IMG/VR virus record: IMGVR_UViG_3300029812_000136
Strand: one strand, 5' to 3'
Source: an uncultured virus (IMG/VR IMGVR_UViG_3300029812_000136)
Lineage: Duplodnaviria > Heunggongvirae > Uroviricota > Caudoviricetes
DNA: 20,000 nt
Shown: positions 2,950 through 16,301 of the stretch, piece by piece
How positions within the stretch are numbered: the stretch's first letter is position 1
How the letters are laid out: each line of letters opens with the position of its first letter
The notes under the pieces: generated by a model
The model's database searches: none
Told to the model about the DNA's origin: nothing
The model's input: the letters and a program-made list of their open reading frames with translations, nothing else
Translations under genes and position numbers: made by a program

Positions 2950-3327
2950 ATGACAAATAAGACATATGTTGTATATAAAGAAGTTCATGAAAGTGGTGGA
3001 GGTCATGGTAAGAGAAAAATTGGAAAAGTTTCAGCAAAAAGTCCAAGTAGTGCATTAATGAAAGTTATTGATGAATATTATACGTTTCCATATAGTGCAA
3101 TTGGTGTGGTCTTTTTTGTTGATAAAAAGAGCTATACAGTTGTTTTGTTAAATGATAAACTAAAAGTAGAATTAAATTGGGCTTTTGTCATGCGTGGAAC
3201 AAAACAAGAAGTTGATAAGAGAGCAAGAGAGTTGACAAGACTTGGATATAAAGTGAGAAAAACAAAAGATGGATTTGGTTGGAATTTGAAAGCGAAGGGA
3301 TATATGAATGAGAGTATGAGAAGTTAA
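2950..3327 (+). CDS. Hypothetical protein
   Basis: ORF track 2938-3327; ATG 2950 (MTNKTY) is the likelier start given the upstream TATA box. Confidence 0.6.
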   Translation: MTNKTYVVYKEVHESGGGHGKRKIGKVSAKSPSSALMKVIDEYYTFPYSAIGVVFFVDKKSYTVVLLNDKLKVELNWAFVMRGTKQEVDKRARELTRLGYKVRKTKDGFGWNLKAKGYMNESMRS

Positions 3328-3383
3328 GATTATAAAAATAGTACGTGTGTGTTTGAAAGTTAATATAAGGAATACAAGATAAT

Positions 3384-3716
3384 TTGACCAGAAAAGGTTA
3401 TTTTGCTGAATACTTAGCCAAACAAAAACTCATTGAAGAATATGGTGACTCAAACATAATCAAAATTGCTATATCGCAACAAGGAGCAGATCTTCTTTGT
3501 TTGAGAGGTAGGGAGATAGTCAAACTCGTTGAAGTCAAATCCACTAAAGGAAAGAAGTGGTATCCTGTTAGACCAAAAGATATTATTCAATTTAATAAAA
3601 TAATTGATTTTGCATCAGAAAAGGAAATTGTTGTTGAATTCTGGATAAAAACAGGTGGTTCAACAGAGTTTGAAATTTTGAGTGAAACAGAGTTTAAGGA
3701 GAGGTATAGTTTATGA
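3384..3716 (+). CDS. Hjc-like Holliday junction resolvase / PD-(D/E)XK nuclease
   Basis: KGYFAE...GADLLCLRG...LVEVKST matches the archaeal Hjc G..E / D / EVK active-site layout. Confidence 0.7.
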   Translation: MTRKGYFAEYLAKQKLIEEYGDSNIIKIAISQQGADLLCLRGREIVKLVEVKSTKGKKWYPVRPKDIIQFNKIIDFASEKEIVVEFWIKTGGSTEFEILSETEFKERYSL

Positions 3717-3865
3717 TAATAAAATCATGGAAATGGAGATATAGATTATTTAATGAATTACCAAAAGTATGTCCATATTGTAATGGTGAAGTTATAGAGA
3801 GAGGTTTTGAAGGTGTTAATTGGAGAGTTGAATGTAGAAGTTGTGAAAGAGTGTTAATAGAGTGA
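3713..3865 (+). CDS. Small zinc-ribbon protein (50 aa; not in ORF track)
   Basis: Manual translation MIIKSWKWRYRLFNELPKVCPYCNGEVIERGFEGVNWRVECRSCERVLIE; two CxxC pairs; ATGA overlap with the upstream gene. Confidence 0.65.
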   Translation: MIIKSWKWRYRLFNELPKVCPYCNGEVIERGFEGVNWRVECRSCERVLIE

Positions 3866-3945
3866 TAAAAAAGTATATGAATATTAGTTGAAAAATAGAA
3901 ATTTTCACCAAATATAGTAGTTTTTGATGCAAATATTGTGTTTTC

Positions 3946-4001
3946 ACCGCAAACCTATTTATATACATATATAAATATATATAAATTGTAAGAGGAGGTG
4001 A
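3946..4001 (+). promoter_or_regulatory. Strong archaeal promoter (BRE-like + TATA) and Shine-Dalgarno of the split capsid-like gene
   Basis: ACCGCAAACC then TTTATATA (3958-3965); GGAGGTGA (3994-4001) 5 nt before ATG 4007. Confidence 0.75.
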
Positions 4002-4006
4002 AAACA

Positions 4007-4455
4007 ATGGACATAAGAAAATTTCTCAAAGACACCAAAGCTCAGATGGGAATGAGTCTGACTGATGTAGGTTTGGCTATAGGTATACTTGCCGTGATAG
4101 GTTTCGTCATACTCTACAGCACCAAGAGGAGTTAGTCCAAGTAAATGTATAATGATAAAAAACAACTTACTCAGGTGTGGAGCAATATGTAACGAAGTCT
4201 ATAGCATCGCAGCCATCTCGTCAGGTAGCATCTTCTATACAGGTGTTCAAAAGGTCACCAAATGGAGAAGAGGTTTAGAAAGTTTATTTTTTAAAATAAA
4301 GAATATAGCATCTCTTAAATTGGTTTTAAACGCTCCTCCAGGTGCAAATCGTGAATACCGGTTACGGGATGTTGCTGATCGCTGTCCTCGCCATGCTGAC
4401 AGGTTTTATAATTTATTACCTCAGAGGTGCAACGGGTGGAGGCGGAACCATATAG
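4007..4455 (+). CDS. Intron-split putative major capsid protein of spindle-shaped-virus type, join(4007..4117,4185..4261,4347..4455), 98 aa
   Basis: Spliced product MDIRKFLKDTKAQMGMSLTDVGLAIGILAVIGFVILYICNEVYSIAAISSGSIFYTGVQKVTKIVNTGYGMLLIAVLAMLTGFIIYYLRGATGGGGTI has a basic leader ending KAQ and two hydrophobic helices joined by a polar linker, as in His1/SSV1-type capsid proteins. The gene has its own promoter, SD and terminator, and both junctions are canonical BHB motifs that restore the frame. Confidence 0.8.
4118..4184 (+). other. BHB intron 1 (67 nt) in the capsid-like mRNA
   Basis: 5' arm CAUA|CUCU|ACA bulge|GCACC; 3' arm GGUGU|GGAG|CAA bulge|UAUG. 4-bp central helix CUCU/GGAG with 3-nt bulges on opposite strands; contains the in-frame stop TAG at 4133. 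Confidence 0.85.
4262..4346 (+). other. BHB intron 2 (85 nt) in the capsid-like mRNA
   Basis: 5' arm GGU|CACC|AAA bulge|UGGAG; 3' arm CUCCA|GGUG|CAA bulge|AUC. 4-bp central helix CACC/GGUG, AU-rich interior; removal fixes a frameshift. Confidence 0.85.
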
Positions 4456-4476
4456 GGAACGAAGACCTGAGAGGGA

Positions 4477-4506
4477 AGGGACGAAGTGTCCCTCTTTTTT
4501 CTTTTC
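4477..4506 (+). terminator. Hairpin plus U-tract terminator after the capsid-like gene
   Basis: AGGGAC-GAAGT-GTCCCT followed by CTTTTTTCTTTT, 21 nt after the spliced stop codon. Confidence 0.7.
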
Positions 4507-4516
4507 CTATAGAGAC

Positions 4517-4984
4517 ATGAGTAAAACGACCATATCCGTTGTGGTTTTGATCACACTTTTGGTGCTTTCGTTATCAGTCATTTCGGTGAATGCATTATTT
4601 CCAAATCCAATCAATGCTACTGGAAATCTAAGCTATGTAAAAGCTGTTAATTTTACATACGTCGCAAATCAGTCTGTAGGAGGGAATGCAGTTAAGACAG
4701 TCGCTTTCAATGTATCAATCAAAACTTTAGGCATTTGGCAGAATCGAACATTGGCAGACAATTATACATACATTCATACAAGTAATCCAAACCCATCAAC
4801 TTTCAATATTGAAGTCTGGGCATGGAATGCAACAGGGAGTGGTAATTTGTCTAATAGCTCAGTAAATATGTCAGCTACAACTTTACAAGCAAAACGATCA
4901 GCACCATCAATGACACCAATATCAATAGTCGTAGCACTGGCTTTGTGGTCAATAATCCTTGCAAAAGTGAAGAGGAGAAAATAA
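4517..4984 (+). CDS. Secreted, C-terminally anchored glycoprotein (candidate virion/surface protein), 155 aa
   Basis: Start at ATG 4517; signal peptide ending VNA; 11 N-X-S/T sequons; C-terminal APSMTP + TM helix + KVKRRK. Confidence 0.75.
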   Translation: MSKTTISVVVLITLLVLSLSVISVNALFPNPINATGNLSYVKAVNFTYVANQSVGGNAVKTVAFNVSIKTLGIWQNRTLADNYTYIHTSNPNPSTFNIEVWAWNATGSGNLSNSSVNMSATTLQAKRSAPSMTPISIVVALALWSIILAKVKRRK

Positions 4985-5021
4985 TTTTTTACTTTTTCTC
5001 CTTTTTTTATTTTTCTATTTT
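4985..5021 (+). terminator. Archaeal oligo-T terminator
   Basis: Multiple T-runs (TTTTTACTTTTTCTCCTTTTTTTATTTTCTATTTT) directly after the stop codon. Confidence 0.6.
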
Positions 5022-5102
5022 AAATATTTTAATCAATAATAGTGAAACTTTCACATAAAAAGTCATCAAAAACTCAAAAGTTTCTGACAAATAGTATCAT
5101 AA

Positions 5103-5702
5103 ATGAAAAAACTCCTCCTCTCCATCTTCTTCATAATAACATTCATCAAACTCTCTCTCTCAATTACTCTCCTCTCACCCACAATCGTATTCGACGAGTC
5201 TATCTACTCAATCGCTATCCGATCAATCTGGGAAAATCACACTTATTTCACAGGACGATTTCTCAACTATCCTCAGTACCCACCTCTCTATCCTCTTCTC
5301 CTCAGTCCAGTCGCAACATATATCTATTCAGAGTCTTTTTTCCGTTACGCCATAGCAATTAATTGTATAATCACTTCATCAACAATCTTCCCATCATATT
5401 ACCTCACAAAAGAATATCTCTCAGACCGTGAAAGTCATCTCGTAGCATTCCTCGTCGGAATAATGCCATCAACATTTATTTATTCTTTTATCATGATGGC
5501 AGATTGTCTCTTTTTACCTCTCTTCCTCACATCTGTCTATTTCATGAAAAAGACGCTCGATGAGGACAATTTCAAAAATAATTTCCTCTCAGGTGTGTTC
5601 ATCTCTCTCACATTCCTCACAAAAGTAATTGCAGTAATTCTTGTGTTAGTATATATTATAATAAAGCTGTGGCATTTTGTAGATAAGAAAATTGAGGATT
5701 AG
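5103..5702 (+). CDS. GT-C (PMT/ArnT-like) glycosyltransferase, N-terminal half
   Basis: FDESIY loop, YPPLYPLLL, multiple TM helices, ending shortly after the FLTK motif. Confidence 0.7.
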   Translation: MKKLLLSIFFIITFIKLSLSITLLSPTIVFDESIYSIAIRSIWENHTYFTGRFLNYPQYPPLYPLLLSPVATYIYSESFFRYAIAINCIITSSTIFPSYYLTKEYLSDRESHLVAFLVGIMPSTFIYSFIMMADCLFLPLFLTSVYFMKKTLDEDNFKNNFLSGVFISLTFLTKVIAVILVLVYIIIKLWHFVDKKIED

Positions 5703-5907
5703 GATGAGAATGGTAGAAAATATTTATATTGGAAAAATCTTTTTTATTAATACAATAGTAAATCCATTGATGGTTGTATATCTTTTATTTATGTTGCAAT
5801 ATGCTAAAGTGCCTGGGTTATATGTGTGTCTTGGATACTTTATAGGTTGTTCAGTATTCCAGTTAATTGATTATTTTACTAAGTTGTCGAAGATAAAGGT
5901 GAAATAA
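5692..5907 (+). CDS. Small two-TM membrane protein
   Basis: Two hydrophobic segments; start may be ATG 5704 or 5710. Confidence 0.5.
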   Translation: MRIRMRMVENIYIGKIFFINTIVNPLMVVYLLFMLQYAKVPGLYVCLGYFIGCSVFQLIDYFTKLSKIKVK

Positions 5908-7990: not shown

Positions 7991-8305
7991 ATGAAATTCT
8001 TCAAAATACGAATAGGAAATAGACAAAATCTCCTCGAATACTTATCCTTAGCCAAAAAGCGAGGTATCAAATTCAGATGGAATCAAATCCATCAAAGATA
8101 CGAAGCACGAAAACGTATCTATGGCAACAAAAGTATTGATATCCGTATCAAAAATTATTCAGGGTATTGGCGATTACATATGCATGTGGATATAATAGTC
8201 TGTGATGTAGTCCAGCAAGTGCACAAAATCTGGAAGAACAAAACTGAGACCAACAAAATTGGTCAAAAATACCTTGAATTCAAAAATTTTAAGCATTATG
8301 AATAA
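7991..8305 (+). CDS. Hypothetical basic protein
   Basis: 104-aa ORF with upstream AGGTG SD; contains an LHMHVD motif. Confidence 0.55.
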   Translation: MKFFKIRIGNRQNLLEYLSLAKKRGIKFRWNQIHQRYEARKRIYGNKSIDIRIKNYSGYWRLHMHVDIIVCDVVQQVHKIWKNKTETNKIGQKYLEFKNFKHYE

Positions 8306-8407
8306 ATGTTGTGCATCCTGCAAATTGGTCTTGTCTATCACCTCTTTCTCGATAATAGACATCTATTCACCCAAGCAGAAAGATGTATAACTAAAGGACT
8401 TAAAAAG

Positions 8408-8602
8408 ATGAAGAAAATATATATTGATGAAGGAATCGCTAAGGAAGAGGCTAAAAGTAGAATCTCGGAATGCCTATCTAAAATTGACGAGAAGATATAT
8501 CCTAGTGAAATAGCCGAAAAGCTTCATATTGATTATGATCTATGCGTAGAGATCACAGAAGAACTTTTGGCTGAAGGTAAAATAGAGATTGTAGAGGAGT
8601 GA
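8408..8602 (+). CDS. Small winged-HTH protein
   Basis: IYPSEIAEKLHIDYDLCVEITEELLAEGKI; likely start ATG 8408 within ORF 8306-8602. Confidence 0.65.
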   Translation: MKKIYIDEGIAKEEAKSRISECLSKIDEKIYPSEIAEKLHIDYDLCVEITEELLAEGKIEIVEE

Positions 8603-8774: not shown

Positions 8775-9043
8775 AATTCAAATACCCAAATGGAAAAGTA
8801 GTAGAAGCAACAAGTATAGATTTTAGTACGAATAAAGAAGAATGGAATGAGTATAGTCTTGAAGATGGGTCTGTCCTAAAATTTAAGTCAATTATATCCA
8901 GCATAATCAGGACTGACGAATTTGATCCAACAACAGGCGATCCTATCTATCATGTAAGATCAACAAATATAGTATCCATAATCGTCCCAGAAGAAATCAA
9001 AAAACAAGCTGAGAAGAGGGTAGAGGGTATGGAAGTTGGGTGA
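8771..9043 (+). CDS. Conserved hypothetical beta-rich protein
   Basis: EEWNEYSLEDGS...DPTTGDPIY pattern resembles a small family of unknown function seen in archaea. Confidence 0.65.
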   Translation: MKFKYPNGKVVEATSIDFSTNKEEWNEYSLEDGSVLKFKSIISSIIRTDEFDPTTGDPIYHVRSTNIVSIIVPEEIKKQAEKRVEGMEVG

Positions 9044-9079
9044 ATGATTTTTTATAAATATAAATATTAAGGAATTTCT

Positions 9080-9235
9080 ATGGTTGATTTGAGAGATGTA
9101 TCCTTTATAGTCCCAACCAATCGTGAAAGTATTCACACAGTTAAATCAATTCCACCAGAATGTGAAATTATCATCCCAAAGTCTTCACCACTCGGTAGAG
9201 CCAGAAATGATGGGATCAAACAAGTCATAAAATAA
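9080..9235 (+). pseudogene. Truncated GT2 glycosyltransferase N-terminus
   Basis: MVDLRDVSFIVPTN...LGRARNDGIKQ then stop just before the expected DxD motif. Confidence 0.65.
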
Positions 9236-9268
9236 TTCGTAGTGTGATGTGAAGAGATAGTTTAAACA

Positions 9269-9276: not shown

Positions 9277-9443
9277 CTGTAAATATATATATTACATAAG
9301 GGGAATGAGAGGAAAAGTGACAAAACAAAACAATATAAAGTAGTTTTGAGTATCTTACGATAGAATTTTGTTTGATGGAATATCTCAAAATATTTCCTCT
9401 CGTTCTTCCAGTATGTTTTTATGGTGTAAAAATAATTCTTATT

Positions 9444-10775: not shown

Positions 10776-11222
10776 ATGGAATTAGATAAAGAATATTTGG
10801 AAATAGTAAAACAAATAGAAGATTTAGATAAGGAAAGATCAGAGAGTGAAATAATTGAATTAGATAAACAAATCAGGATATTACAAGAGAAGAGAATAGT
10901 AATATCAGATAAATATGTCAGGAGACTAAATCCTTTAGTACAAAGAAGAGAAGAAATCTTAAATGATTTCAGAAAGATGTATGATGGAAACAAGAAGAGA
11001 CAATATGGTGTATTAAATCTTTCATACAGAATAACAAAGAGTCTAAAGATACTTGATCCAACTAAAGTAGTAGAAGCTCTCCAAAAAATAGACAAAGTAT
11101 CCAATGGGATAAATTCATTCAATCTAACATTCCTAAGAAAGTTACGAGACACAGAAATATTGAAGGATGATTCAGTACAGTATGAAGAGAAGGTGAACAT
11201 CAGAGTTGAGGAAAATAGATAA
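10776..11222 (+). CDS. Coiled-coil protein, possibly Mu Gam-like DNA end-binding protein
   Basis: Long N-terminal coiled coil followed by KKRQYGVLNLSYR..KSLKILDP.KVVEAL, the layout of Gam/Gp157-like phage proteins. Confidence 0.5.
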   Translation: MELDKEYLEIVKQIEDLDKERSESEIIELDKQIRILQEKRIVISDKYVRRLNPLVQRREEILNDFRKMYDGNKKRQYGVLNLSYRITKSLKILDPTKVVEALQKIDKVSNGINSFNLTFLRKLRDTEILKDDSVQYEEKVNIRVEENR

Positions 11223-12810
11223 TTTAAATGATTATATATTATTAACAGCAATCTTTCTTTTCCATTCAGTCCTGAATATATGGTATATTCACAAAGATAC
11301 TCTCCCACCAAGTTGGGATCCTGCTACTCACGCTCTCTACTCATCTGCGTATTTCCATGGGTTCTTTCCTCAATCACAATTTTATCCACCATTTGTTCAT
11401 TATGTACCAATTCCATTCTACATTCTATTCGGTGAGTCGTTTGATATTGCATGCATTTCAAATATAGTATTTCTTGCCATTCTTCTCTTCTCTGTCTATG
11501 GAATTGGCAAATATCTTTTCAATCGTGAGGTGGGTTTATTTTCATCTCTGATAATTTCTTTCATTCCAATTCTTATCGTCTATCAACGTGATTTCCTCTT
11601 AGACTTTCCTCTAACAGCAATGATTGCTCTATCAATCTACGTCCTTCTCAAATCTGAAAATCTAACAAATATAAAATATTCAATCTTATTCGGGATTTGT
11701 TTCGGTCTTGCAATGTTGACTAAGTGGGCAGCGATTTTCTTCGTAATATCTCCTCTCCTTTGGGTATTCTATCAATCAATAAAGGAAGATAGAATAAAGA
11801 AGTGTGCTTTCTGTGGTAGAATACTAAAAAACAAAACTAAAATAATTCTCAAGGGATTCAGTACTTTCTGTTCTGAAAGACACAAGAAAAGTTTTATAGA
11901 AGAAAATAGAAGAGTATTGACAAGACAACACAATCTTCTTTTCTCCTTAATTTCTTTCATTATAGTAGCAGGATCATGGTATATTCCCAACTATAAAGTC
12001 TTTTTCACTCTTCTGTCTGGTCAGAAGTACTGGGGTTCTGTTGAAGGAGATCCAGTTGGTTTGTCTCTAAGTTCTTTATGGTATTATATTGAAGCTGTTA
12101 ATAAACAAGCATTCCTCTTTCTATCTATTCTCTTTCTCGTCGGATTAATATATCTAATCATAAAGGTAGGTTTGAACAAGAAGATACTATTCACAATATC
12201 AATTCTATTTCCATACATCTCTTTTGTTCTAATTTCAAACAAAGATGTTAGATACACACTTCCATTATTGATCTTTCTTTCAATTGCTTTAGCGTATTCA
12301 TTAATAAACATTGAAAACAAAAAGATAAAATCAATAGCAATATCTATATTGATTGTATTCTGTCTACTCCAAACATCAACAATTACATTTGGGTATCCTT
12401 CATTCGATGTTCCTAATTCCATCTATCCAACACCAAAATCACCTATACAAGAGGATTGGAAGATTGATGAAGTACTGTCTACAATTCAATCACAAGGTAT
12501 AAGACAACCAAATGTTTTAATATTGTATGATTCTTCATATATGAATTGGCGAACGCTACAATATTATGTATTCATAAATCAATATCCAATCAACATCCAA
12601 AACTATGAATTCATAAATGCATATCCACAACAACTAGAGAATTTTGATTTTGTCCTTTATGTTGATGAAGAAAGGAGTACAGCAACACAACAAAAAATAA
12701 TGATTGATAATGCAAATATGTTATTTGAAGCAAATATAAATAATTACATAATGATCAATTCAATAAATTTATCAAACAAAAAGCAAATGGAGGTATATCA
12801 AAGGAAATGA
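11206..12810 (+). CDS. GT-C (ArnT/PMT family) glycosyltransferase with an inserted Zn-finger
   Basis: PPSWDPATH, FYPPF, LAMLTKW, WY.PN and NKDVRYTLP motifs; many TM helices; CAFC...FCSERH insert. Confidence 0.85.
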   Translation: MRKIDNLNDYILLTAIFLFHSVLNIWYIHKDTLPPSWDPATHALYSSAYFHGFFPQSQFYPPFVHYVPIPFYILFGESFDIACISNIVFLAILLFSVYGIGKYLFNREVGLFSSLIISFIPILIVYQRDFLLDFPLTAMIALSIYVLLKSENLTNIKYSILFGICFGLAMLTKWAAIFFVISPLLWVFYQSIKEDRIKKCAFCGRILKNKTKIILKGFSTFCSERHKKSFIEENRRVLTRQHNLLFSLISFIIVAGSWYIPNYKVFFTLLSGQKYWGSVEGDPVGLSLSSLWYYIEAVNKQAFLFLSILFLVGLIYLIIKVGLNKKILFTISILFPYISFVLISNKDVRYTLPLLIFLSIALAYSLINIENKKIKSIAISILIVFCLLQTSTITFGYPSFDVPNSIYPTPKSPIQEDWKIDEVLSTIQSQGIRQPNVLILYDSSYMNWRTLQYYVFINQYPINIQNYEFINAYPQQLENFDFVLYVDEERSTATQQKIMIDNANMLFEANINNYIMINSINLSNKKQMEVYQRK

Positions 12811-13750: not shown

Positions 13751-14862
13751 AAGTTGGCATATTTCATTGGAGTTTTGATGAACTTGGTGGAGGAGAGGTT
13801 TTATCTTCGTATCTTGCAAAGGCGTTAGATACAAGTGTTTTTTCTATTATCAAGGATCCAGAAAAAAATAAGTTAGGTTTCATAGATGTGTCACCAAAAC
13901 TTCCTTTGATAACAAGATATATAAGAAAAATCAGGAGTCTTGATTATTTGTGTTGGAGTAATGTAGATATAAACGATTTTGGTGATTTTGATGTTGTCAT
14001 AACAAGTGGTCTGACAGCGAGAGCAATAATTACACCAGATTCTGTACCACATATACATTATAATCATTCACCAGCGAGATGGTTATATGATTTGTGGCAT
14101 TATAGAAGAAAAAGTAAAGGATGGCTAAAACAGAACTTTATTCTTCCTTTAGCTGGTGATTTTTTCAGAATGTATGATCAATCTGTTGATAATAGAGTGG
14201 ATTATTACTTCAGTAATTCTGAAATAACACAAAGAAGATTATGGAAATATCTGAAACGAGAATCTATAATTCTCTATCCGCCAGTAGAGACAAAGAAATA
14301 TAAAAATTCTGAGTCTGAAGATTATTATCTTTTTATTGGAAGATTGTGGGAAGAAAAAAGACCAGAAGTTGCAATTGCAGCTTGTTTACAATTAAATAAA
14401 AAGTTAGTCATAATTGGTGATGAAAATAAAAAATTGATACACAAATACAAAGATAATTCTCTAATAGATTTCAGAGGTAATGTAACAGAACAAGAAAAGA
14501 TAGATCTATTGTCTTCATGTAAGTGTGTTTTATATCCAGCAAAAGCAGAGGATTACGGAATCGTTCCTTTTGAATCTTTCGCATCAGGAAAGCCAGTGAT
14601 ATGTTCAAATGATGGATTTCCACCTCTTGTTGTAGGACAAAATAATGGGATTGTTTCTGATGGAAGTATTTCAGGTATAAAGAAAGCCATACAAGAGATC
14701 GAAGTGTTGAATTATGATCCAGACAAACTAAGAAAATTTGCGAGTAAATATGACTTTTCTATATTTAAGAAAAAACTAATGTACTATATGAATATATTTC
14801 AAGAAGATTTTGAGCAAAGGAAGGAGTTTGTAAAAAGTGTTAAGTCAACCACTCCTCCCTAA
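13747..14862 (+). CDS. GT4 (GT-B) glycosyltransferase; last residues supplied by the IS end
   Basis: GGGE, IGRL..EK and EDYGIVPFESFASGKPVI motifs. Confidence 0.9.
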   Translation: MKVGIFHWSFDELGGGEVLSSYLAKALDTSVFSIIKDPEKNKLGFIDVSPKLPLITRYIRKIRSLDYLCWSNVDINDFGDFDVVITSGLTARAIITPDSVPHIHYNHSPARWLYDLWHYRRKSKGWLKQNFILPLAGDFFRMYDQSVDNRVDYYFSNSEITQRRLWKYLKRESIILYPPVETKKYKNSESEDYYLFIGRLWEEKRPEVAIAACLQLNKKLVIIGDENKKLIHKYKDNSLIDFRGNVTEQEKIDLLSSCKCVLYPAKAEDYGIVPFESFASGKPVICSNDGFPPLVVGQNNGIVSDGSISGIKKAIQEIEVLNYDPDKLRKFASKYDFSIFKKKLMYYMNIFQEDFEQRKEFVKSVKSTTPP

Positions 14863-15110
14863 ATCCTAACAGGTTTGAGGAAGGGACTTGTAGATACAAG
14901 CTCTGGGTTGATTAGGAGGCATATATGCAAAACATAGAAGCAGAAGTTAGGAACGTGAAATACATACACACCTTGGAGTGCTCCACAAGCTCCAAGCTCT
15001 GTGACTCTGCGATTAAACATGACTGTGGGGTAGGTCAAGTGTTACAGAGTCCAAAAACCATTCCTAACAACTCCGATGTGGACCAACACTCTGGCAAGAG
15101 TGAACAGGAC
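14844..15110 (+). ncRNA. omega-RNA (HEARO-like) scaffold; predicted 5' guide in the flank at about 14824-14843
   Basis: GTCAACC pairs with GGTTGAT (14906-14912); CTTGGAG/CTCCAAG stem; conserved-looking ACACACC, GCTCTG, ATTAAACA and TAACA elements directly upstream of iscB. Confidence 0.8.
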
Positions 15111-16301
15111 TTGCGAGTCCCTGTTTTAAACATGCGTAATAAACCACTAATGCCAACAACACCACAAAAAGCAAGACATCTATTAGAAACAAGTAAAGCA
15201 AAGGTAGTAACCAGAAATCCATTTGTCATCCAACTTCTGTATCCAACAGGTGAATCAAAACAGGACATAACTTTGGGTATAGATGCAGGCTACTCAAAAA
15301 TAGGGTACAGTGCAGTAACAGAAACACAAGAACTTATGACAGGTGAATTAAAACTAAGAACAAATATCAAGCAATTATTAGATAAGAAGCGAGGAGCACG
15401 TAGATTAAAACGCAATAAATTGTGGTACAGACAACCAAGGTTTCTCAATCGATCCAAACCAAAAGGATGGATACCACCATCTTTAGATCACAAATTACAA
15501 ACTCACATCAGACTGATCGAATGTCTAAAACAAATCTTACCAATCACAAAAGTAATAGTAGAAGTATCATCTTTCGATACACAGAAAATGCAAAATCCTG
15601 AAATCTCTGGTATCGAATACCAGCAAGGGGAACTGCAAGGTTATGAAGTCCGTGAATACTTATTAGAAAAGTGGCATCGAGAGTGCGCATATTGCGGTGC
15701 TAAAAACATACCTTTGGAAGTAGAACACATTATACCAAAAATACGAGGAGGTTCTAACAGAGTATCCAATCTCACCATGAGTTGTCATGACTGCAATGAG
15801 AAAAAAGGCAGTCAAACTGCAGCAGAATTTGGTTACCCAAACATCCAAAAACAAGCAAAACAATCTCTCAAAGCACCTGCATTCATGAATACCATCCGTT
15901 GGAAATTAGTAAATACATTCAATTGCAACTGGACTTACGGTAGCATAACGAAACACAACAGAGTAAAGCTTGGCTTAGAGAAATCACATGTAAATGATGC
16001 GTTTGTTATTGCAAATGGTGCAGGGCAGGAGAGAAGTAAATCTCATAGAGGAACGCAAACAAGACGGAACAACAGGAGCATGCAAATGAATAGAAAAGGG
16101 TTCAAAGTATCTATAAGAAGGCAGCGATACAAACTACAACCAAACGACTTGGTGAAGTTTAGAGGTATGTTCTGCCGGGTCAAAGGAGTATTCAATTATG
16201 GCAAATGGGTAAGAATAGTAACAAAAGCGGGAGAAGTAATCAATACTAACATTAAGAATGTAGGAGTGTTGAAATATGGGAAAGGAATACAATGGGAGTG
16301 A
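15111..16301 (+). CDS. iscB: IscB RNA-guided endonuclease (PLMP, split RuvC, HNH)
   Basis: KPLMP, RuvC-I LGIDAG, Arg-rich bridge helix, RuvC-II VIVEV, HNH CAYC...EHIIP..RGGSN..SNL...CHDCN and RuvC-III SHVNDA all intact. Core starts at TTG 15111; an alternative in-frame ATG lies at 14925. Confidence 0.95.
   Translation: MRVPVLNMRNKPLMPTTPQKARHLLETSKAKVVTRNPFVIQLLYPTGESKQDITLGIDAGYSKIGYSAVTETQELMTGELKLRTNIKQLLDKKRGARRLKRNKLWYRQPRFLNRSKPKGWIPPSLDHKLQTHIRLIECLKQILPITKVIVEVSSFDTQKMQNPEISGIEYQQGELQGYEVREYLLEKWHRECAYCGAKNIPLEVEHIIPKIRGGSNRVSNLTMSCHDCNEKKGSQTAAEFGYPNIQKQAKQSLKAPAFMNTIRWKLVNTFNCNWTYGSITKHNRVKLGLEKSHVNDAFVIANGAGQERSKSHRGTQTRRNNRSMQMNRKGFKVSIRRQRYKLQPNDLVKFRGMFCRVKGVFNYGKWVRIVTKAGEVINTNIKNVGVLKYGKGIQWE

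Follow-up and report, generated by a model that had tools for sequence, protein, structure and literature searches.

Two putative bulge–helix–bulge introns in a predicted small membrane protein gene on a virus-like contig of very probable archaeal origin

The confirmed bulge–helix–bulge (BHB) introns of archaeal mRNA, as recorded in the parts of two reports considered here (PMC2738675 and PMC7714728), are that of cbf5 and one located in a 5' untranslated region (UTR) of Haloferax. The pre-mRNA of cbf5 from Crenarchaeota carries a BHB intron (Watanabe 2002; Yokobori 2009, PMC2738675), and in Haloferax volcanii, the BHB intron in the 5' UTR of the HVO_1309 mRNA was confirmed both in vivo and in vitro (Schwarz 2020, PMC7714728). 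With regard to archaeal viruses, putative 'introns' of 12 bp are mentioned for rudivirus genes (Peng et al., cited in PMC2738675); as cited there, they are in-frame and come without demonstrated BHB splicing. A literature search at the level of abstracts returned no report of a BHB-spliced virus gene, which is not proof of absence. In this article, we focus on a candidate for such a gene in the uncultured virus record IMGVR_UViG_3300029812_000136, of which a stretch of 20,000 nucleotides, hereafter the window, was analysed. The gene begins at ATG 4007 on the + strand and probably, with appreciable room for doubt, codes for a two-helix membrane protein whose pre-mRNA would undergo EndA/RtcB-type splicing of two BHB introns.

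By analogy, this split gene would work like that with the cbf5 intron, and what would be new is the carrier, the number of introns and the strict form of the motif. Both are protein-coding genes broken by short BHB-bounded inserts, which gene callers miss or read as a frameshift. However, two introns are found here in a single very small open reading frame (ORF), with an additional motif in a leader elsewhere in the window, and the split gene is carried by a virus-like or mobile contig, whereas cbf5 is a cellular housekeeping gene. The introns are also longer than those of cbf5, their splicing is predicted from sequence, and their boundaries take the strict hBHBh' form, which would be accepted even by strict alpha4 or alpha'2 endonucleases. 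With HVO_1309, as is proposed here, the tRNA splicing endonuclease acts on an mRNA and not on a tRNA or rRNA, and that intron resembles the third BHB in the leader; in contrast to that case, the present one is a prediction from sequence and folds, and two of the three motifs lie inside a coding sequence. As for the rudivirus 'introns', these are also short insertions in protein-coding genes, in that case of an archaeal virus, that were proposed as introns, but the inserts described here shift the frame, are bounded by strict BHB motifs and have to be removed for the ORF to exist.

At the ATG 4007 locus, three protein-like pieces follow one another, each in another frame (2, then 0, then 1). 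The frame opened by ATG 4007 runs for 42 codons and then meets the stop TAG 4133–4135. The elements of the locus are the following:

3993–4001, + strand: Shine–Dalgarno (SD) sequence AGGAGGTGA, 5 nt upstream of ATG 4007
4007–4117, + strand: exon 1, 37 codons in frame 2, with a basic N-terminus and then hydrophobic helix 1
4118–4184, + strand: putative intron 1, 67 nt, bounded by BHB1, containing the in-frame stop TAG 4133
4185–4261, + strand: exon 2, 25 codons plus 2 nt, in frame 0
4262–4346, + strand: putative intron 2, 85 nt, bounded by BHB2
4347–4455, + strand: exon 3, 1 nt plus 35 codons and a stop, in frame 1, with hydrophobic helix 2 and a Gly-rich tail
4477–4503, + strand: terminator-like hairpin (4477–4493) followed by a T run, to 4503, 21 nt past the stop of the spliced ORF

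Excision of 4118–4184 and 4262–4346 gives a 297-nt ORF of 98 codons with its stop at 4453–4455, and the hydropathy profile of the spliced product shows two hydrophobic stretches, with their centres close to residues 30 and 77. The initial annotation, made from the sequence alone, had described the locus in these terms, and its coordinates and sequences, the stop after 42 codons, the two BHB motifs, the 67- and 85-nt excisions and the 98-codon spliced ORF are all correct; the ORF also ends, as it had stated, just before a terminator-like element. The 'strong promoter' that it invoked corresponds to an AT-rich TATA-like stretch recognised by eye only. As to translation signals, when 33 ORF starts were compared, the match to the anti-SD consensus was longest for AGGAGGTGA, an SD core of at least 5 nt being found at 13 of these 33 starts versus 10.5% of 5000 random positions. 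Exon 2 has neither a start codon nor an SD of its own. One terminator-like hairpin is observed, versus 0.4 expected from shuffles, and frame 0 would read through it if intron 2 were not removed.

Upstream of the split gene, within 3903–4004 on the + strand, TTTTCACC occurs in two copies (about 3905 and about 3943), and its reverse complement, GGTGAAAA, is part of the SD region. These elements could represent an operator or a pairing that masks the SD.

With regard to the intron boundaries, the strict hBHBh' motif is described, in the part of the source used here, as two 3-nt bulges on opposite strands with a 4-bp helix between them and flanking helices, catalysis taking place at the 2'-OH of the second bulge nucleotide, hence the rule of cutting after this nucleotide (PMC5829648). 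BHB1 and BHB2 both have this strict form in sequence, and BHB1 in full and BHB2 in part also have it in the predicted folds; their components are the following:

4099–4200, + strand: BHB1 structure, with an outer exon–exon helix of 13 bp in the fold and the bulges ACA and CAA
4108–4123, + strand: 5' strand of BHB1, with outer CAUA 4108–4111, central CUCU 4112–4115, bulge ACA 4116–4118 and inner GCACC 4119–4123
4174–4189, + strand: 3' strand of BHB1, with inner GGUGU 4174–4178, central GGAG 4179–4182, bulge CAA 4183–4185 and outer UAUG 4186–4189
4242–4359, + strand: BHB2 structure, with a 3-bp outer helix plus a distal exon–exon helix of 8 bp
4253–4267, + strand: 5' strand of BHB2, with GGU 4253–4255, CACC 4256–4259, bulge AAA 4260–4262 and UGGAG 4263–4267
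4336–4350, + strand: 3' strand of BHB2, with CUCCA 4336–4340, GGUG 4341–4344, bulge CAA 4345–4347 and AUC 4348–4350

BHB1 is complete in its local minimum free energy (MFE) fold, and also in both the MFE and centroid structures of the 516-nt transcript 3990–4505. For BHB2, the central and inner helices and the 5' bulge are found in the local MFE fold and in the MFE and centroid structures of the same transcript, the 3-bp outer helix and the exact 3' bulge not being present as such in the local MFE fold; its local folding energy has a z score of −3.68, and 0 of 200 shuffles fold equally well. A sub-threshold Rfam scan added nothing at the split-gene locus.

We propose that a primary transcript extending from about 3990 to about 4505 would form a strict hBHBh' at each boundary pair, held by exon–exon pairing of 11–13 bp, that each 3-nt bulge would be cleaved by host EndA behind its second nucleotide, and that RtcB would ligate the exons to one another and close the introns into circles. 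The full protein would be produced only from the doubly spliced mRNA, while unspliced mRNA would give a 42-residue stump. Such a scheme supposes a carrier that replicates in an archaeon with EndA and RtcB, where cleavage and ligation would both occur, and the product would presumably be a membrane or virion protein. The basis of this proposal consists of the motifs, their predicted folds, the restoration of the frame, the SD-to-terminator layout and a homologous protein, P0004, presented below, in which exons 1 and 2 are colinear.

How often such motifs arise by chance was estimated with a scanner for BHB-like elements (central helix of 4 bp, at least 3 bp on each side, insert of 12–200 nt) that scores 3 for G-C, 2 for A-U and 1 for G-U pairs, applied to both strands of the window. 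It returned 714 matches, among which BHB1 and BHB2 rank fourth and fifth with a score of 30 each. Five matches reach at least this score, versus a mean of 1.04 in 25 Markov-1 simulations (maximum 4; 0 of 25 reached five), and because the simulations yield on average about one such match, BHB1 or BHB2 taken singly is not beyond chance. The pair, placed at two consecutive frame breaks, is beyond chance: from the simulated rate, the probability that one strand carries two motifs with a score of at least 30 less than 450 nt apart is roughly 7e-5, before any restoration of the frame is required. Out of the 714 matches, only BHB1 and BHB2 combine a score of at least 30 with a length not divisible by 3 and with a frame that is open for at least 25 codons to either side, while the demand that the frame stays open is by itself weak, as 111 of the 714 satisfy it. 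Two other high-scoring matches are useful as calibration for BHB scans:

15878–16019, + strand: chance-like BHB match, score at least 30, within a region that aligns contiguously to the IscB model
9035–9195, − strand: chance-like BHB match, score at least 30, antisense to the small ORF 9081–9236 and not supported by folding

A weaker BHB-like match at the end of the split gene (4440–4570, + strand; p 4440, q 4564; score 27; 124 nt) was set aside as probable chance, having three G-U pairs in its outer helix and spanning the terminator; it would bring exon 3 into frame with the glycoprotein ORF that lies downstream, entering this ORF at 4570 and bypassing its signal peptide. A codon log-odds test did not separate exons from introns, and it is uninformative here because stop-free intergenic windows score as coding (mean 0.34 vs 0.33); nor does codon usage discriminate between splicing and the other explanations discussed below.

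The comparative evidence comes from an exhaustive HMMER search with the 42-residue ORF against 1.84 billion representative proteins, which returned one match, the 88-residue P0004 (E 7.6e-4). Exon 1, read in frame 2, matches residues 1–35 of P0004 with 24 of 35 identities (E 3e-13), and exon 2, read in frame 0, matches residues 47–69 with 14 of 23 identities (E 2e-7). As P0004 was picked by exon 1 alone, the exon 2 match constitutes independent evidence, and the presence in one P0004 ORF of the homologues of two pieces that lie in different frames in the window suggests that both belong to a single polypeptide. The spliced product reaches a Smith–Waterman score of 156 against P0004, compared with 105, 68 and 32 for the single frames and with a mean of 30.6 and a maximum of 63 for 2000 shuffles. 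The alignment contains one gap, of 14 residues, at junction 1, and once these residues are taken out of P0004, its conserved blocks lie five residues apart, as in the spliced product. The R-C-G at the end of the P0004 insert corresponds to the 3' BHB half of the window read in frame 0. When P0004 was back-translated, 4 of 855 in-frame BHB placements were compatible with its amino acids, which is weak evidence; one of these placements (42 nt) coincides exactly with the insert, so that its excision gives an alignment free of gaps, but it is rich in G-U pairs and its register is unlike that of the window. P0004 may be read as the result of a gene caller reading through an in-frame intron and then into a second intron; in-frame introns of 33–39 bp are on record for cbf5, as far as the consulted part of PMC2738675 goes.

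Further searches for relatives returned no homologue. A word-based protein search with exon 1 gave no relative, and IMG/VR was scanned without success with two neighbouring proteins, exon 1, P0004, the alignment of exon 1 and P0004, a 319-residue ORF and two degenerate DNA patterns of the conserved blocks. Nothing was found by tblastn with P0004 and the exon 3 ORF in 50,697 phage and archaeal-virus records, by tblastn against plasmids, or by blastn of window positions 3300–5300 against phages. In the ESM Atlas, P0004 had no usable feature match, and its model has a pLDDT (predicted local accuracy) of 0.56. Four candidate loci were rejected as spurious: L001 and L002, from a metagenome scan, match within a long multi-pass membrane ORF, which may be ATPase subunit I, and L003 and L004, from genome scans, are unrelated bacterial ORFs.

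P0004 also bears on two explanations that dispense with RNA splicing. According to the first, the locus would be a decayed or mis-assembled P0004-like gene that suffered two frameshifting insertions or assembly errors. This would agree with exons 1 and 2 sharing one frame in P0004 and with the record being an uncultured contig, of 75,591 bp, but the interruptions consist of unrelated AT-rich sequence, 67 and 85 nt long, and not of single-base indels. Strict BHB motifs bound both of them, neither the SD nor the terminator is damaged, and P0004 shows a 'break' of its own, of another kind, close to these sites; we therefore regard decay or mis-assembly as very unlikely. The second explanation, a joining of the frames during translation through two programmed +1 frameshifts or ribosomal bypassing, draws on the fact that both frame changes are +1, on an SD-like AAGAGGAG upstream of the stop TAG 4133 and on frames 2 and 0 both being open over 4098–4132. 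Nevertheless, inspection by eye revealed neither matched take-off and landing codons nor a shift-prone codon able to re-pair, the AGU before TAG 4133 being unable to do so after a +1 shift. Near the second shift, frame 0 has no stop or pause site, nor is there any candidate site, and the product would contain about 50 extra residues that are absent from the P0004 alignment, all of which makes recoding extremely doubtful.

Several observations weigh against the splicing of two BHB introns. At least two of the five matches with a score of 30 or more look like chance, and the local folding energy of BHB1 is unremarkable (z −1.30; 21 of 200 shuffles fold equally well). Frame 0 is open for about 141 codons (about 4098–4520), across both introns, and exon 3 could initiate independently, as AGGTG lies 6 nt upstream of GTG 4351. 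With regard to relatives, P0004 is the sole one found, and at the protein level only. The initial annotation had suggested a search for intron-less homologues, whereas P0004 carries its own 14-residue in-frame insert at junction 1; the colinearity that it had named as a test is seen at junction 1, where exons 1 and 2 lie in one P0004 ORF, and has no support at junction 2, across which the alignment is insignificant (3 of 13 identities). P0004 has no counterpart of exon 3, and its final 18 residues do not match this exon. Furthermore, a conserved I-[LI]-Y tripeptide precedes the intron in the window, where it reads ILY, and follows the insert in P0004, where it reads IIY, so that the intron positions would differ by about 8–9 nt. 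Finally, two features of the neighbourhood speak for bacteria: in the phage collection, the IscB protein and a PHROG-4652 protein match only bacterial phages, and the ESM Atlas neighbours of a PMT_2 protein are bacterial.

Part of this evidence could be explained by two or three independent small ORFs accompanied by BHB-like folds that arose by chance or serve another purpose, P0004 then being a fusion of the first two. The set would comprise the 42-residue ORF1, a frame-0 ORF starting at ATG 4152, and an ORF3 of 34–37 residues starting at GTG 4351 or 4342. The ribosome-binding motif preceding GTG 4351, the long open stretch of frame 0, the ability of P0004 to read through its own insert and the chance occurrence in the window of BHB-like motifs of equal score all go in this direction. 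However, the frame-0 ORF lacks an SD and would traverse the terminator hairpin, the low probability estimated above for a same-strand pair of motifs would have to be accepted, the 13-bp and 11-bp exon–exon helices would be left unexplained, and the I-[LI]-Y tripeptide and the equal spacing of the blocks are explained by excision only. On balance, independent ORFs appear unlikely, and splicing of a single gene is preferred.

A third strict BHB, with the top score of the scanner, is located further downstream:

8308–8391, + strand: third strict BHB, score 32, in an intergenic leader

Its outer helix has 10 bp, the central helix is CUGC/GCAG, the bulges are AAA and the inner helix is UUGG/CCAA. 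The motif is the MFE fold of its region (z −2.65; 1 of 200 shuffles folds equally well). It lies between the stop of ORF 7991–8305 and ATG 8408, and the cutting rule would excise 8324–8380, that is, 57 nt. The listed 98-residue ORF 8306–8602 (+ strand), coding for an acidic helical protein, probably starts in reality at ATG 8408 (MKKIYIDEG...), its first 34 codons overlapping the third BHB and looking non-protein-like. Within 8324–8380, AUCACCUCU presumably resembles the 3' end of 16S rRNA, i.e., an anti-SD. The three BHB inserts do not form a clear common sequence family.

This leader motif raises the possibility that EndA cuts the BHBs without productive joining, for regulation, cistron separation or the formation of small circular RNAs, the 98-codon ORF being incidental. 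There is indeed no ORF in the non-coding leader that would need repair, and a BHB intron in a 5' UTR is known from Haloferax HVO_1309, according to the part of PMC7714728 used here. We nevertheless consider cleavage alone quite improbable, since both excisions at the ATG 4007 locus restore the frame exactly and agree with P0004 at junction 1. Moreover, in known cases, RtcB ligates the exon ends left by EndA.

With splicing of the ATG 4007 transcript as the preferred reading, we can tentatively propose, although this generalisation is rather doubtful, that an archaeal virus or mobile element uses the tRNA-splicing enzymes of its host as a general layer of gene expression, with two frame-shifting BHB introns that interrupt a small, highly expressed gene for a membrane or virion protein and one BHB in an mRNA leader, all within 20 kb. 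The introns would then yield small circular RNAs, one of them containing the anti-SD-like sequence mentioned above. The distance of about 8–9 nt between the P0004 insert and intron 1 of the window suggests an independent gain or a movement of introns in viral genes. If splicing does take place, expression of this virus-borne gene would require the EndA and RtcB of the host. This would represent a novel type of dependence on the host, which might serve as a switch of regulation or host range, and a source of viral circular RNAs, as well as a warning that gene callers overlook small structural genes in archaeal viromes.

As to the nature of the product, the VP1-like major capsid proteins of fuselloviruses, which are spindle-shaped archaeal viruses, are small proteins with two helices. 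The spliced product resembles them in its length of about 100 residues, its two hydrophobic helices and its strong expression signals, but searches with the exon pieces, P0004 and the exon 3 ORF revealed no sequence or profile similarity, and the likeness is generic for small membrane proteins. The term 'capsid-like' applied to the gene by the initial annotation found no backing, the exon pieces having no Pfam, PHROG or NCBIfam match and the tblastn searches with P0004 and the exon 3 ORF having returned nothing; 'capsid' is thus a guess from size and hydrophobicity, and the accompanying ideas of a late-expression gate and of a host-range determinant are speculation. A possible likeness of the N-terminus to signal peptides of class III (pilin type) was set aside; none of the family models gave a match.

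With regard to the carrier, the window has a G+C content of about 32%, its ORFs lie nearly all on the + strand, and it contains no tRNA gene. A Pfam match at E ≤0.01 was obtained for 12 of the 35 ORFs, and an NCBIfam match for 9 of the 35. The best NCBIfam matches are archaeal types, namely AglG_Halo (1.1e-45), Agl16, Agl23 and thy_syn_methano, the methanogen-type model that the thymidylate synthase-like protein matches with 2.3e-26, versus at best 3.2e-14 for the other thymidylate synthase models listed. A weak Hjc match is also present among the window proteins; PDB sequence searches with the Hjc-like and ThyA-like proteins were of no help on the host domain. Because the best family matches are archaeal types, the carrier is very probably of archaeal origin, as far as sequence families can tell. 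The virus half of the attribution to an 'archaeal virus' did not find the same backing, as no virion hallmark gene occurs within the 20-kb window. Immediately downstream of the split gene lies the following ORF:

4517–4984, + strand: surface- or envelope-type protein ORF of 155 residues, beginning with a signal-like segment, carrying 11 N-X-S/T sequons and having at its C-terminus a hydrophobic anchor and then basic residues

It probably codes for a glycosylated surface or envelope protein and is adjoined by a glycosyltransferase cluster (PMT_2 twice, GT2 and GT1). This context fits an archaeal virus or another mobile element with an envelope or surface-glycoprotein module.

The window also harbours a complete IscB-type unit, composed as follows:

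14844–16301, + strand: complete IscB-type RNA-guided nuclease unit, with the RNA followed by the IscB ORF
14844–15087, + strand: HEARO/omega RNA (Rfam RF02033, 109.5 bits)
14925 (annotated start), + strand: IscB ORF (NF040563, E 6.7e-114), with RRXRR and HNH

Since the annotated start at 14925 overlaps the HEARO/omega RNA, the true start of IscB is probably near 15100.

Two further observations concern the glycosyltransferase genes. In 5103–5907 (+ strand), the PMT_2-type ORF has 199 residues, versus 534 in its paralogue 11206–12810, and it overlaps at its end with a 71-residue ORF of the +1 frame, no BHB being seen at the break; this PMT_2-type gene may be split or truncated. Lastly, an unlisted ORF of 51 codons (9081–9236, + strand), which by eye looks like the N-terminus of a GT2 glycosyltransferase, lies in the gap before the GT2 gene at 9372.

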